Assembly (NCBI GenBank): GCA_017499595.2
Contig: CM038999.1
Coordinates: 1,550,001 to 1,614,000, forward strand
Reading direction: 5' to 3'
DNA length: 64,000 nucleotides
From: Psilocybe cubensis
Lineage: Eukaryota
Shown one piece after another: positions 1,136 to 47,594 of this stretch (positions are counted from its first letter, which is position 1; each line of letters starts with the position of its first letter). A program made the translations under genes and the position numbers. Under the pieces are notes generated by a model. That model searched no databases. It saw only the letters and a list, made by a program, of their open reading frames with translations, and had not been told where the DNA came from.

Positions 1136-1693
1136 GCTTACCAGTGACCTTTCGTTTTATCTTATCTGCTTTCGGAATGGGCGCTTTAGCTCAGGAGATA
1201 GGTTCATATACACACGGGAACCGTAGATTTTGATATCCTGAATGTCATAGATTATCACCGTGAATAGAAAGGATTGTGCAGTACATTACCCGATTGTGGA
1301 CGGATTCAAGAGGTTAGATGGAGAGATGTTGTTTGCTCAAGACTATGACGTTTTTGTCAGGTACCCCATACATGAAAAGCGCTCGAACGTTCCTTCAGAC
1401 AAGGGAAAAAAGGGAGCATCTTTCATTCATTCATAAAAATGTGTTAGGCATGGGGATAGAATATAAGCAATACAGTGAATCTTTCATTATTTATACAATC
1501 TATCAGGCAAAGGGATAGAATCCGACCATCCTTGTTAGTGGATGGTGTTTGAAAAGAAACTCGAAAATTTCGTCAAGGAACCATTAATCGTACATATCGA
1601 TACCCATCTCCATCTATGCGGTATGCGATCGCGTGCGTGTCGTGTTATAGGTACAGTGTGTGCGTGTTCATGCAGTTGATTTTAGGGGAGGTG

Positions 1694-3814
1694 TTACAGT
1701 CGAGCAGCCTTTGTAGAGGTTGAATTCGGATTTGAGGATAGAGAAGACGTGGAAGTGGAAGAAAGGGATGTGGGCGAGATGAGCGCGACGACGACTGAAA
1801 TGTCGTCGCTCTTCCCACCCCTAAACGACCGCCCCGCAAGTCGCGCGCGCCGTGCGAACGGGACTTCATCCTCCTCCTCTTCCTCCGACGCTTCATCCGA
1901 CTCCTGCTCACGCACCGCTCGGGTTCGTGCGCCCGCCTTCGCCGCATCAATCTCACACTCCCTCTCCTCAGGTATCACATCAACACCAAACCGCCCTCCC
2001 CTCTCCTTCATCTTAATTTTATTACTCCGTTTCGACATGACATGAGACGGAGGGCGCGTTTCCGAGACACGTTTCGCACGCGAGCACAGAGCTTCAGCAA
2101 GCATACCCGCAAATGCCCGTCTGCGCAGGGTCGTTGTGCTGCTTTCTGGCATTTCTGTGGGCTCTAGTTTCCCTGTGCGCACACCATTCAAATCCGAACC
2201 CAGCGCACACGACACACCCCCACTCCCCGAAAGACACCCCGCGCGGACCTTGACGACCTCATCTAGCACGTCCTCATCCCATAGGTTGTCGCTCAGCCCA
2301 TCAGATGCAAGAATTAGGATATCACCCGAGCGCACGGGAAGCGTACATGTGTGCGGCTGTGTGGGGAGGGCATGAGCAGTGGGTGTGGTAGAAGTGCTTG
2401 AAGAAGACGATGATTGGGAAGAGGGGTGCATAGTGCTTTTTGAGGAGGTGGATGAAGATGTAGACGGAGAAGGTCGAGGGGGGCCGAGCTGCAGGGGGTG
2501 GTTGTACCCCCACCACATCTCATCGCTACGCCAAGCGATTGCGTCGCCGCGCACGAGCATGCCCATGCAGTCGCCGAGGTGTGCTATGCGAAGCACGGCG
2601 TCGTACGCCTCCTGATCCTGGGACCTACCAGCATCCGTGCGCTCCTCTGTTTCCTGTGGTATCGCGCTTGATGGGGATGGCGAACTAGAAGTGGAACTTG
2701 TCTCGGATCCAGATAGACTTGGCGATGCTGTGGATGAGGGAGATAGAGCGGGAGGGGAATGCGAGTAGACGGACCCAAGGGCGTAGTTCTTCTCCGGAGC
2801 AGGAGGATGGTGTGGGAGAGGGCCGGAACCGGGCGGAGGTGGATGGTCAAGGACGGCGAGAAGAGCGGTGGAGGATCCGGTGGTTAGGGGTATGGGAGTC
2901 TCTATCGATGAGGAGGCGGGGGGAAGATGGTGGACTTTTACGGTGCTATCGTATGCGCGCTCGAGGATGCGGAGGATGTCGATACCCTCTTCGAGCTCTT
3001 CGAGAGACGAAGTGAGTGAATCCTGAAGATCGGAAAAGGAAAAGGGGCCGGGAGTTGATGGGGGGGCAGGGACGGCAAAGGGTGTGTAGGATGCAGGGCC
3101 AAAGGATGTGCGGGGTTTCAGGTGGTGCGTGAATGAAAAGTGGGTCGTAGGGGGGCGGGCAGTCGGGTCAGGACGGAACGGAGTTTGGTCGTGGGCAGAG
3201 GCATCGAGGGCCTCTATCTCAGCGGCGCAAAAGTGCATGAGACGGCGGGAGAAGAGGGCGCTGGGGGTCGGATGGGCAGGGTTGGGTGTCTGGGAGCGAG
3301 ACCAGCCGCCAACGCCGTCTGCGATGCCCATCGCATTGTCGCAGACAAAGTAAGAGTCTTCCCCGACCTGCACTGAAAGGGCAGTGTGGGGGTACTGGCT
3401 CGTAGATGGGCTTGCTGAGGAGTGGTATGCGCGGGTGTGGGGACGGTGCTTGGGGATGCCATATGCGCCTACATCGAGCTGGTAACGCAGCCGCTGACGC
3501 TTGTGTGCGCGGGGGCTGGCGGCTGCGGCGGCTGCGGCATGTGTGGGGGGCGGCTGCTCTGGGAGATGGACAAGGGCGGGGAGAAGCGGGGGAGAGAGGG
3601 GAGCGGGGTTGGTGAGCGGGGGCTGGTTGGCAGGGGCAGGCTGAGTGAGGGCGAGCTGGGAGTGCTGAGACTGCTTGGGGGCCTCGCTGGGGAGACGGGG
3701 GGGAGTAGTGAGGACTGGGCGGGAGGTGGATGTCGGTGGCTGGGCAGTGAGCGTAGAGAGCGAGTTGGAGCGGACGCGGGGCAAGACAAGCAGACGCTGG
3801 CGCATCCGACTCAT
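1694..3814 (-). CDS. PTC7: PP2C-family protein phosphatase, PTC7-like, with low-complexity inserts; apparently intronless
   Basis: Motifs VGEDSYF, IADGVGGW, GSSTALL, AHLGDCMG, ILASDGLSDNLWD, GGKSDDISVVVA. First plausible ATG is 3814 (MSRMRQRLLV); protein ends -KAARL. Confidence 0.85.
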   Translation of the reverse strand: MSRMRQRLLVLPRVRSNSLSTLTAQPPTSTSRPVLTTPPRLPSEAPKQSQHSQLALTQPAPANQPPLTNPAPLSPPLLPALVHLPEQPPPTHAAAAAAASPRAHKRQRLRYQLDVGAYGIPKHRPHTRAYHSSASPSTSQYPHTALSVQVGEDSYFVCDNAMGIADGVGGWSRSQTPNPAHPTPSALFSRRLMHFCAAEIEALDASAHDQTPFRPDPTARPPTTHFSFTHHLKPRTSFGPASYTPFAVPAPPSTPGPFSFSDLQDSLTSSLEELEEGIDILRILERAYDSTVKVHHLPPASSSIETPIPLTTGSSTALLAVLDHPPPPGSGPLPHHPPAPEKNYALGSVYSHSPPALSPSSTASPSLSGSETSSTSSSPSPSSAIPQETEERTDAGRSQDQEAYDAVLRIAHLGDCMGMLVRGDAIAWRSDEMWWGYNHPLQLGPPRPSPSTSSSTSSKSTMHPSSQSSSSSSTSTTPTAHALPTQPHTCTLPVRSGDILILASDGLSDNLWDEDVLDEVVKVRAGCLSGSGGVSCALGSDLNGVRTGKLEPTEMPESSTTTLRRRAFAGMLAEALCSRAKRVSETRPPSHVMSKRSNKIKMKERGGRFGVDVIPEERECEIDAAKAGARTRAVREQESDEASEEEEEDEVPFARRARLAGRSFRGGKSDDISVVVALISPTSLSSTSTSSLSSNPNSTSTKAARL

Positions 3815-21181: not shown

Positions 21182-22046
21182 TGTCAGATTAGTTGATCGT
21201 GATGTCAAGGTGATAGATAATCCTCTGATGACGGTATTTGGCAAACAAAACGTAGTCTGACCGATTCTCAGTGTTGGCGGAAACTTGGAGTGCTTGTGAA
21301 TCGACAAACTGGTTATTTATGTTCGGTTGTCTCATCGGTGCTGAGTTTCGCAAACTTGTCAAGTCTTTGTGCAAGTGACCGGCTAAGGTCTACCGTTGAG
21401 CTTAGTAATTGCCTGATCGTTAGTCAGCTTGACTGGATTTAACAAGTTGAGACCAACTCAGACTCGGACTACGTCTTCCATTGGTCTTCAGCTGCTTCAC
21501 AACTCACTCAAAGTACCCATCGTTCTCCTACAGCCACCAGCCAAGTCAGTGTTACAACTTCCCATAGCTTACTCCCAGAATAAGCTACGGGTTTCTTTCA
21601 GGAAATATTGCAAACCAACAGGCCACCAGTGTAACAGGCGGTACTAAACTGCTCTATTACTTTATGGATATCGGTAGCCTTGAAGCGATTTAGTCAAGTC
21701 TTGTTCGTCAATCGAGGTTGCTGCGCTGATATAATGAACAATTCTTTGAGTTCAATCGCTTAGTCCCTTCCGACTCTATGAGTACAAGGATCCCATGAAT
21801 CCGAGGTGAGATACACTCCTGGTATCATTATATTCTTGAAACAGGAGGATATAACACTTAGTTCTGGCTGTCCCGACCAACTAGATTGATGTTGAATGTT
21901 TAACTTTGTGTTAGTACGTTTCGCATACCGATTCGTGTCGGACTTGCGACCCTGCGGAATGCATGCTGCACTGCATTCGAGCTTATTTCGTTCTTTAATT
22001 GCAGCTCGAGGGGAACTTTTGTTGACTATTCACTTCTGCTTTTACG

Positions 22047-44512: not shown

Positions 44513-45402
44513 CAGTGGCTTAAATAATCAATCATCCGGATATCCAGTGTAGTAAGTGTAAATATGTCTATTATGATGCTGGTATTAACTTTCTCTTCTT
44601 CGCTTAGATTCCTCCCTAATATAGACCTTTATTCTATGTTCTCAATCACACAAACCAATTACATTCATATTGATGAAACTCTTTCAACCCACGAATACAC
44701 TGCCTATAATATCAGCAGATACTCACCAAGAAGCCTTTACATATCATGAAATAGACTTCGCTCTTCCAAGATTTTTCTACAGTTGCCACGCGATCATGAA
44801 TCAGTGTCTTGATGTGGGTGTTTGCTCACCTTTAGAATTGGCTCACTCACATAGCCCGCACAATTAACACATTTCCTTTCATTAAGCACGGCGGCACCGT
44901 AACCAGGTCCTAACATAACTTGGTGGCCTGAAGACGCCGATTCCGACTTAGACCGCCTCATCTCGGGGTGAACGGGATGTCCAGAGGATCATGCTTGATA
45001 CCCATGGAAAGCAGCAAATAGACAGGTTCGAAAATAGAATGCACATTGTGTGTGAGTCCATTTCCGGAACAAAACGGTACACTACATCCTCCTGCATTCC
45101 AATTTCCATCGACCAAGGTTACCGATTACACGTGATCTCTTTTGGAAGCTTTACCATGCAACTATCCATGGGCCTGTATGCCTAATGTGTAACATTTGGT
45201 ATGCATCGGGAGGATTCGATTGATTTACCAGGCTTTCATTGTCATCTGACGCCCGCTCAGATTTCCCTTGTAGATGTTCCCGCGTAAATCGAATGGCAGA
45301 GTGGCTGAGACATAAAAGGACCATGCTCTCATTCATTCTTTCCACATCCCAGTTACTTGCCCACTTCACTCATCCACTACCAACTTTTTATCAGAATAAG
45401 TC

Positions 45403-47266
45403 ATGAAGGTGGTATTTCTTGAGAATGACCCAGCTTAGATTGTTGACGTTATATCAAAGGTCCTTGCAATCCTCTACGAAGGTGGCCAGGCTGCTAAAGA
45501 AGAACCACGCCTGTTGGGCACGGTTGAGAACAAGGTACACTTAATTTATATTTTTGAAGTTACGACTTTCTGACTTTAAATGAATAGCTGGGCATTGCGG
45601 AATGGCTTACATCCCAAGGCCACGAATTGATCGGTAAGGTCATTGTGCATACTCGATTAATCACTACTCACGTTGATTAATGTAGTGTGTAACATCTTTG
45701 CTCCTTTGCTCTGGTTGTTCATGCTCTTTTGTAGGTCTCAAGTAGCAAGGAGGGCCCCGATAGCGATTTCCAAAAGCACATAGTTGATGTACGACCCATC
45801 ATTTTTCAAAGTGCTCATTTGACAACATGCTCTGTTATAGGCTGAAGTTTTGATTACAACGCCTTTCCATCCGGGGTGAGTTCATAAAGTATACCATAAA
45901 TTACATTGGGCTCAGCAAGGTCAATGTAGGTATTTGACTCGAGACCTCATTGAGAAGGTAAAGCTACTGGTTATCGGGTGACTATCTCATCCGAACAAAA
46001 CTTGTTAGGCCAAAAACCTAAAGCTTTGCATCACTGCTGGCGTTGGCTCTGATCACATCGACCTCAATGCTGCAGTCGATCATAGAATTCAAGTTTTAGA
46101 GGTAAATTGATTGTAGTGCATCCTTCGCCCCTTGTTTACACGTTAGGCAGGTCTCTGGGTCAAATGTCGTCTCTGTTGCCGAGCACGTCGTGATGAGTAT
46201 TCTCCTTCTCGTCAGGAATTTTGTCCCTGCCCACGAGGTTAGAAAATATACTACAGCTTTTGCGTCGCTGTTTTTCACTGTTTTACAGATGATCGAAAGG
46301 GGAGATTGGCAGGTATCTGACATTGCCAGAAATGCCTTCGATTTGGAAGGAAAGGTTGTTGGCACTATTGGTGCTGGACGTATCGGCTACCGTGTCCTTC
46401 AACGTCTCGTTCCCTTCGATACCAAGGAGCTCCTTTACTATGATTACGCCCCTCTTCCAGCAGGTAAAAAATGGTTGTCAACCAATCATCCTTTAATCTC
46501 ACCCGTCGTTTAGCTGCTGCCGAAGCTGTCAAGGCCCGTCGAGTAGAGGATCTCAAGGCATGTTTTAAAATGTCTCGACTTCTTTAAAATCCCACTTATT
46601 TCTGCTTTATAGGAATTTGTTTCTCAGGTACACGTCATTCAAGAAAGTTGAATAAAGTGTCGCTGATCAGACCTACAGTGTGATGTTGTCACTGTCAATT
46701 GCCCTCTCCACGAAGGCACCCGAGGACTTGTGAACGAAGAATTGCTCAAGCACTTTAAAAAGGGTGCATGGCTCGTTAACACTGCTCGTGGTGCTATTTG
46801 TGACAAGGATGCTGTTGCCGCCGCTCTCAAGAGCGGACAACTTTCTGGCTACTCTGGCAAGTATAAACTTGCCTTTTTGCTACTTGTGGATTCTAAAATT
46901 GCAGCATCATAGGCGATGTTTGGAACGTTCAGCCCGCACCCAAAGACCATGTTTGGCGTACTGTGAAGAACCCCCTCGGTGGTGGTAACGGAATGGTACC
47001 ACACTACTCTGGCACTACCCTTGACGCTCAGGCACGCTATGCTAACGGTGCCAAGAGTATTCTTGAGAATTACTTGTTGAACAAGCCTCAGGACCCACAG
47101 AACATCATTGTTGGCATTGGTGAGTTCACCTATTCTACTTCCAGGTTTTATTCAGGTACCTAATATATTAAAATCTCAGGCAAGTACGAGAGCAAGGCTT
47201 GTGAGTGTCACTTTCATTGTACAAATATACTTTTGTTGATGATAATTTGCAGATGGTCAACGCTGA
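45403..47266 (+). CDS. FDH1: NAD-dependent formate dehydrogenase, about 15 exons
   Basis: [87 protein letters not shown]; ends KAYGQR*. Confidence 0.96.
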
Positions 47267-47594
47267 AAGCTTGCAGGGATGTTGCAACATCTCTCGATTA
47301 CATCGATATTTCGTCGCTGAAACGCTGTCCTGTTTTTTCTTACACATGTATAACTACCTGGAAATAAACATAAATTGTCCTCGTCAACGTTAATCTTCGA
47401 AATAGGGTAAATTTGTGTGTGTGGTATAGATACAGAATTGATGATAAGTTATACAAATATTACTCTTTAAGTAATGAATGACAAAGCAGGAAAATGACTA
47501 CATAGTGATGGCTAATACTGACAGTGTGGCGTGGGTGCAAAGTGGGCATGGTTTAAATAATAGATAGCGAATGATAGCGAGCGAGGCAACGGAA

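Follow-up and report, generated by a model that had tools for sequence, protein, structure and literature searches.

The question raised by this locus is how a stretch of 102 nucleotides (nt) is removed from an mRNA when no single canonical intron can account for its removal. The stretch occupies positions 45633-45734 of a 64-kb DNA sequence from Psilocybe cubensis (the window, that is, the whole 64,000 nt that were analyzed), and it interrupts the gene of NAD-dependent formate dehydrogenase (FDH). A first-pass annotation, made from the letters alone, had interpreted it as a [D1,2] spliceosomal twin intron (stwintron), in which one intron lies within the donor site of another, and had held that splicing must proceed in two ordered steps. 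The mature junction, the build of the stretch and comparative data speak strongly for a stwintron. The 102 nt very probably form one, of the alternative [D1,2]/[A2,3] type, and it appears to be the first in Basidiomycota.

Removal of 102 nt from FDH transcripts

A query of one FDH exon showed 100% identity to the database protein P0001 (364 amino acids; source name Psilocybe cubensis formate dehydrogenase). Since P0001 carries the precomputed Pfam matches PF00389 and PF02826, those of the catalytic and NAD-binding domains of D-isomer 2-hydroxyacid dehydrogenases, the host gene is an NAD-dependent FDH. We assembled the FDH model from the joints of RNA-like contigs and then translated it. The product of 358 residues, which is the usual length for such FDHs, matches the database protein P0092 at 332 of 358 positions. 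The parts of the gene needed here are as follows.

45403-47266, + strand: FDH gene from ATG to stop, with 15 exons, 14 intervening sequences and 358 residues, as given by the joints of RNA-like contigs
45588-45632, + strand: FDH exon 3, ending ...GGC CAC GAA TTG ATC (GHELI)
45735-45788, + strand: FDH exon 4, beginning GTC TCA AGT AGC AAG GAG (VSSSKE)

Six runs from three studies were matched, none of which is on record as RNA, and the contigs of X1 and X2 (study P1), X3 (study P2) and X4 (study P3) were aligned to 45300-47400. The contigs of X1, X2 and X3 skip all 14 intervening stretches of the FDH gene, and an X1 contig terminates in a run of 24 A's at 47387. Because the introns are absent and X1 has a poly(A) end, we regard X1-X3 as spliced, polyadenylated transcripts. 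Each of these three runs, which come from two studies, gave one joint 45632->45735. This joint removes 102 nt, and the removed stretch has the ends GG..AG, or GT..GG when it is slid one base to the right. The mature junction is TTGATC/GTCTCA (a slash marks a junction here and below), exactly as the first-pass annotation had predicted, and the encoded protein reads HELIVSSSKEG. The removal of the 102 nt at 45633-45734 from the mRNA is thus confirmed.

The deposited protein P0001 reads differently at this junction. Its form, HELIGKVSS, is obtained with a donor GTCATT at 45639 and an acceptor at 45734; this model is in frame, has GT-AG ends, and adds two residues. It had been named beforehand as a result that would speak against a stwintron. 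However, the joint 45638->45735 that belongs to it was absent among the joints in the RNA-like contigs of X1-X3, and all three of these runs give 45632->45735. The motif around the site is shown by 75 of the 120 listed database proteins, and in 61 of these 75 the spacing from GHE(L/F) to KEG is the normal one of five residues, without an insertion. In addition, P0001 is wrong not only at the 102-nt junction. It is identical to the RNA-supported product except at four junctions, where it has an additional V following MK, the inserted GK of HELIGKVSS, AYL for EFVS at a GC-AG intron and the adjoining microexon, and an inserted NIIG at the second GC-AG intron. We therefore consider it very improbable that the deposited model is right. 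As the main form it is contradicted; contigs alone were examined, and a minor isoform of this kind may exist.

A miscount in a homopolymer would also look exactly like the present case. That is, if one G of 45633/45634 were spurious, the stretch would be a plain GT-AG intron of 101 nt. The single DNA-like contig of X4, which comes from another strain and spans the whole 2101 nt with 7 substitutions and one inserted C, is identical to the window at 45633/45634. Since this independent contig keeps both G's, the GG is real. Within the 102 nt it differs by A to G at 45676 and by an additional C after 45710, and no splice motif is affected. Moreover, the deposited protein reads GGT as Gly, and G/GT at the same place is common in relatives. 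An assembly error, which had been raised as a possible refutation, is thus almost inconceivable.

With both G's in place, a canonical intron of 101 nt (45634-45734) would give ATC GGT CTC AAG TAG, that is, a frameshift and an immediate stop, and this removal was absent among the joints in the RNA-like contigs of X1-X3. The insertion of T or TGT as a microexon after the GTAAGG donor was also rejected because of the frameshift. On both points our reading of the sequence agrees with that of the first-pass annotation. Because no single GT-AG or GC-AG intron makes the 45632->45735 join, either non-canonical ends or two reactions are needed.

Two probable overlapping introns and two possible routes

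The sequence layout around 45633-45734 had been described correctly, as we confirmed base by base. Its parts are listed below.

45633-45734, + strand: 102-nt intervening sequence (joint 45632->45735 in X1, X2 and X3)
45633, + strand: upstream G, with which the external donor begins in the [D1,2] route and the exon ends in the [A2,3] route (definition in PMC5587772)
45634-45685, + strand: putative 5' U2-type intron of 52 nt, at the same position as a single phase-1 intron in the relatives L003, L005, L013 and L014
45634-45639, + strand: donor GTAAGG of the 5' intron
45665-45671, + strand: branch-point-like TACTCAC of the 5' intron, with A45670 15 nt before the 3' end
45683-45685, + strand: acceptor TAG of the 5' intron
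45685, + strand: shared G, with which the 5' intron ends and the 3' intron begins; this overlap is found in all 8 distinct long sequences, the window included
45685-45734, + strand: putative 3' U2-type intron of 50 nt
45685-45690, + strand: donor GTGTGT of the 3' intron, which would be rebuilt as G45633 plus TGTGT once the 5' half is gone
45717-45722, + strand: branch-point-like GTTCAT of the 3' intron, with A45721 13 nt before the 3' end
45732-45734, + strand: acceptor TAG of the 3' intron
45735, + strand: exonic G, which in the [A2,3] route would complete the external acceptor TAG from TA (45683-45684) plus G

The halves of 52 and 50 nt fit the size range of the other 13 FDH introns, which are 49-60 nt long (mean 52.7). 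By their ends 11 of these are GT-AG and 2 are GC-AG, and 12 of the 13 have a YTNAY-like element 11-29 nt before the AG. In the two halves of the 102 nt, an element of this kind lies 13-15 nt before the AG.

The stretch has the characteristics of a [D1,2] stwintron. It starts with G/GT and offers no in-frame removal as a single canonical U2 intron. Directly after its first G lies an internal intron with its own donor, branch-point element and acceptor, the function of which is suggested by the sequence and by the orthologous single intron. TGTGTAAC starts at 45686, directly after the TAG at 45683-45685, and an external donor of the form G+TNNGT would be rebuilt there, with its own acceptor and a branch point of weak match. 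The stretch has the characteristics of an [A2,3] stwintron as well, because the two introns overlap by one G and an exonic G after the 3' intron would rebuild a YA+G acceptor, and the same is found in 8 of 8 distinct long sequences. Since the definition in PMC5587772 is matched point by point, the FDH layout corresponds to the published alternative type.

We infer a two-step mechanism with a choice of route, as follows. The stretch would consist of two short U2 introns that have G45685 in common, with G45633 on one side and G45735 on the other. In the [D1,2] route, the 5' intron would be removed first, G45633 would be joined to T45686 to form the donor GTGTGT, and the residual intron of 50 nt would be removed in the second step. 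In the [A2,3] route, the 3' intron would be removed first, A45684 would be joined to G45735 to form the acceptor TAG, and the residual intron of 52 nt would follow. Either route would end in ...TTG ATC GTC TCA..., which encodes the normal HELIVSSSKEG. Because removal of the 3' half first yields the same mRNA, the layout is not purely [D1,2] and a fixed order is not required. Thus the [D1,2] features proposed in the first-pass annotation were borne out by the sequence, but the [A2,3] route, which it had not considered, is offered by the same signals, and the ordered splicing that it described is not required by the layout.

Even so, the 52-nt intron might always be removed first, leaving the [A2,3] route unused. 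Transcription reaches the 5' half first, its donor context (G at -1, GTAAG) and its branch-point-like element are both better than those of the 3' half, and it is the one that stands alone as a canonical intron in L003, L005, L013 and L014. However, the sequence provides the [A2,3] route with the same signals, and the Trichoderma reesei stwintron of the same layout gives both intermediates (PMC5587772). We regard a strictly [D1,2] order as rather unlikely, though far from negligible, and prefer the alternative [D1,2]/[A2,3] type.

An internal AG/TNNGT that leaves both halves with at least 40 nt appeared in 1.1% of 5000 dinucleotide shuffles of the 102-nt stretch. A loose regular expression for the whole pattern gave 2 matches in the window when both strands were searched, against 0.24 expected. 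The loose pattern alone is therefore not diagnostic, and it is the exact fit to the RNA joint that counts. The second match, at about 21817-21929 on the minus strand (G/GTATGC..TACTAAC..CTAG/TTGGT..CCAG/G), is without coding support, and we rejected it as probably due to chance. Around it, three flanking minus-strand open reading frames have no Pfam match, and a nearby DUF6533 gene is on the plus strand.

The same position in relatives and in database proteins

Metagenome contigs were scanned for (E/D)WL-xxx-GHE(L/F)(I/V) with GGTRNG after it, written as a degenerate pattern of 39 letters, which matches the window once (0 expected). The scan gave 14 loci, 13 of which are FDH (L006 is not). A long intervening sequence of 99-118 nt is present in 9 FDH contigs, with 7 distinct sequences in 4 deep groups. 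One group comprises the near-identical L001, L004 and L007 (L004 equals L007 and is one base off L001); the others are L002 with L008, L010 with L012, and L011 alone. Together with the window there are 8 distinct long sequences in 5 deep groups. The first-pass annotation had proposed to look for G/GT...AG/T across FDH genes, and this pattern is indeed present at the same position in these Agaricomycete-like contigs.

All 8 distinct long sequences have a single YAG/TNNGT in the middle, so that the 5' half is 51-64 nt long and the 3' half 48-55 nt. The rebuilt donors would be GTGGGT, GTACGT, GTGAGT and, in the window, GTGTGT. The large canonical GT..AG option shifts the frame in all 8. When each sequence was shuffled 5000 times with its dinucleotides kept, the mid junction arose by chance in 1.1-5.3% of the shuffles per sequence. 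Between groups, the halves align at an identity of only 34-55%. The invariant columns are the GT start and the AG end of both halves and the GT at positions 5-6 of the 3' half donor, with three further columns, of which the 5' half has one and the 3' half two. These results indicate that selection has preserved hardly anything but the splice signals of two introns, the internal pair among them.

Four loci (L003, L005, L013 and L014) have just a canonical phase-1 intron, G/GT..AG/TN, of 48-58 nt at the stwintron position; L009 equals L005 but is cut by the contig end. Since the 5' half is carried alone in these relatives, it is a working intron on its own there. In L005 (FDH at 1471-2561, minus strand) and L014 (686-1791), a phase-1 intron of 50 nt is the sole intron in the whole FDH gene. 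We speculate that this could reflect intron loss mediated by complementary DNA (cDNA) from a partly spliced transcript. In an FDH tree of 52 rows, 2 of 49 inner branches were well supported, and one origin could not be separated from several. The tree left out L001, L007, L009 and L011 because of low coverage, and its pseudo-proteins, built by tblastn, were rough at the exon edges.

These comparisons also bear on the idea that the 102 nt are removed in one spliceosomal step through the non-canonical ends GG-AG or GT-GG. The final product is the sole RNA species seen, and the curated annotation of another basidiomycete, Ganoderma lingzhi, has GT-GG as its third commonest non-canonical class with 38 sites, and 20 GG-AG sites (PMC11590231). 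The apparent end dinucleotides of these sites are the same as those of the FDH stretch. However, one-step removal gives no reason for the conserved mid YAG/TNNGT in 8 of 8 distinct long sequences, and it explains neither the doubled length nor the relatives that have the 5' half alone as a normal intron. The best U1-type donor, TCG/GTAAGG, is in register with 45634, and thus favors a removal of 101 nt rather than 102 nt. The G. lingzhi classes may themselves be unrecognized stwintrons, as we infer from their ends; PMC11590231 treats them as splice-site types and uses neither 'twin' nor 'nested'. One-step removal is therefore improbable, and the reading of the 102 nt as a stwintron accounts better for the relatives.

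Among the motif-bearing database proteins, 14 of 75 are aberrant at the site, and 8 of these 14 begin with IG or VG there, as expected when GGT is read as glycine. The source names of the IG/VG proteins are Psilocybe cubensis, Hypholoma sublateritium, four Mycena species, Volvariella volvacea and Leucoagaricus. To judge from these protein sequences, the twin layout may be widespread among gilled mushrooms; gene callers would normally get a lone phase-1 intron right.

There were 23 short database proteins that matched the FDH N-terminus. Four of them (P0122-P0125) read HE[LF]IG..., which means either an unspliced 5' half or a genomic source. Two (P0127 and P0128) read ...GHEFIVR... and then stop, which would fit either a phase-0 single intron starting with GTNCGN or a [D1,2] intermediate. 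Shifted by one nucleotide, such a phase-0 intron would be the counterpart of the phase-1 intron. As for the rest, 2 are normal, 14 diverge at an earlier intron, and 1 (P0133) is uninterrupted here.

Several points weigh against the stwintron reading. The RNA status of X1-X3 is a guess ('RNA?') backed by the absence of introns and the poly(A) end alone. Neither intermediate, ATCG joined to TGTGTAAC nor AATGTA joined to GTCTCAAG, was seen in the RNA contigs, which drop rare forms and leave 45655-45725 uncovered. In the 3' half, GTTCAT is a weak match to a branch point, and a GTGTGT donor occurs in 0 of the other 13 FDH introns. The scan pattern required GGTRNG after the I/V codon, so that G/GT is present in the relatives by design and relatives with a phase-0 intron or no intron were not findable. 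Finally, multiplying the shuffle probabilities of the five groups gives 1.4e-8 on the assumption of independence, which is overstated because the groups share ancestry.

Relation to known stwintrons and possible consequences

Alternative [D1,2]/[A2,3] stwintrons have been described in Pezizomycotina, namely in the alternative oxidase gene of Helminthosporium solani and the DHA1-antiporter gene of Trichoderma reesei (Fekete et al. 2017, PMC5587772). The FDH case is like them in that two U2 introns overlap by one G, with a G before and a G after. In both the FDH gene and the published cases, the mRNA is the same whichever intron is removed first, automatic annotation goes wrong at the site, and there are orthologues with single canonical introns, as expected if one internal intron was lost or gained. 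The FDH case differs from those of PMC5587772 in its basidiomycete host and in its gene. Its halves are of 52 and 50 nt, whereas those of T. reesei are of 66 and 88 nt, and both intermediates were cloned in T. reesei (PMC5587772), whereas none was seen for the FDH case. Among the relatives of the FDH case, single introns were seen in the phase-1 state only, the scan pattern being blind to phase 0.

Simple and 'sister' [D1,2] stwintrons are known from Aspergillus nidulans and from Hypoxylaceae and Xylariaceae (PMC9024468, PMC12403724). The FDH stwintron shares with them an internal intron that splits the external donor between bases 1 and 2, with the G/GT start as a hallmark. Unlike the sister stwintrons of Hypoxylaceae (PMC9024468, PMC12403724), it has no similar copies in the 64-kb window, no conserved fold and no terminal symmetry. 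In a blastn search of the window with either half, there were just chance matches of 9-14 nt. The 102 nt of the window fold with z = -2.1 (5 of 200 shuffles were as good), and the 5' half can form a hairpin at 45633-45702 in which the GGTAAGG donor region is paired with CTTTGCT, located downstream of the mid junction (minimum free energy -22.6 kcal/mol, z = -2.1). A conserved fold was not found: z ranged from -1.95 to +1.25 over the 7 distinct long sequences that were folded, and from -1.3 to +1.25 in the relatives. Since the z-scores are not consistently low, we rejected fold or terminal symmetry as a conserved feature. The FDH case is a stwintron that keeps its position in one gene, and it does not belong to a propagating family.

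Recursive splicing at ratchet points of long animal introns is also a removal in several steps, the first of which restores a 5' splice site. The introns concerned are very long and their splice-site elements are intact, whereas in the FDH gene a donor or an acceptor is split and the halves are of about 50 nt. PMC5587772 likewise sets recursive splicing apart from stwintrons.

In the 12 searched papers that use the word 'stwintron', 4 of which also mention Basidiomycota, the cases described are all from ascomycetes. A Lipomyces case was called in 2020 the first outside Pezizomycotina (PMC7138796), and a review places stwintrons in ascomycete species that belong to several orders (PMC7385547). 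When two stwintron genes were compared across phyla, the basidiomycete orthologues were empty at the position or had a standard intron there (PMC5639578). Later stwintron papers deal with Hypoxylaceae and Xylariaceae, and PMC12403724 contains basidiomyc- and agaricomyc- 0 times. We found no basidiomycete stwintron in the literature within our reach, beyond which lay supplements and subscription works such as the founding papers of 2013 and 2015.

That short fungal introns are paired by intron definition is seen most clearly in stwintrons, which have also been proposed as a source of one-nucleotide intron shifts and of intron gain. A basidiomycete case backed by transcripts carries them into the second large phylum of higher fungi. 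Because the twin layout is conserved in several diverged lineages beside relatives with a single intron, the FDH gene offers a comparative series. The FDH stwintron would also explain mis-annotation at the same codon in many mushroom genomes, and gene callers need a rule for G/GT...AG/TNNGT...AG/G.

We further put forward, as a tentative and somewhat doubtful generalization, that stwintrons are regular and overlooked in Agaricomycetes, that the one in FDH is old in gilled mushrooms, that the G. lingzhi classes are largely stwintrons, and that the single phase-1 intron is a resolved stwintron. If this is true, the FDH stwintron underlies the broken FDH models of Psilocybe, Hypholoma, Mycena, Volvariella and Leucoagaricus, and the 58 GT-GG and GG-AG sites of G. 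lingzhi (PMC11590231) would largely be stwintrons of the FDH type. The single phase-1 intron could then stem from recombination with the cDNA of a long-lived splicing intermediate, and the relatives would form a natural basidiomycete series for the proposed mechanism of one-nucleotide intron shift.

The FDH gene has other unusual features besides the stwintron.

46558-46612 and 46857-46912, + strand: GC-AG introns with the donors GCATGT and GCAAGT, both spliced out in the RNA contigs
46613-46627, + strand: FDH exon 11, a 15-nt microexon (GAATTTGTTTCTCAG) between a GC-AG and a GT-AG intron, which encodes EFVSQ with its neighbors

The microexon was seen in the RNA contigs as 11 'letters between' at the joint 46558->46676. 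An X1 contig of low depth (28.3, against thousands for the spliced form) covers 46611-46704 and retains the intron 46628-46678. Unspliced FDH forms can therefore enter the contig set, and there was none such for the stwintron. The loose poly(A) end of the X1 contig at 47387, about 120 nt past the FDH stop, is a likely polyadenylation site.

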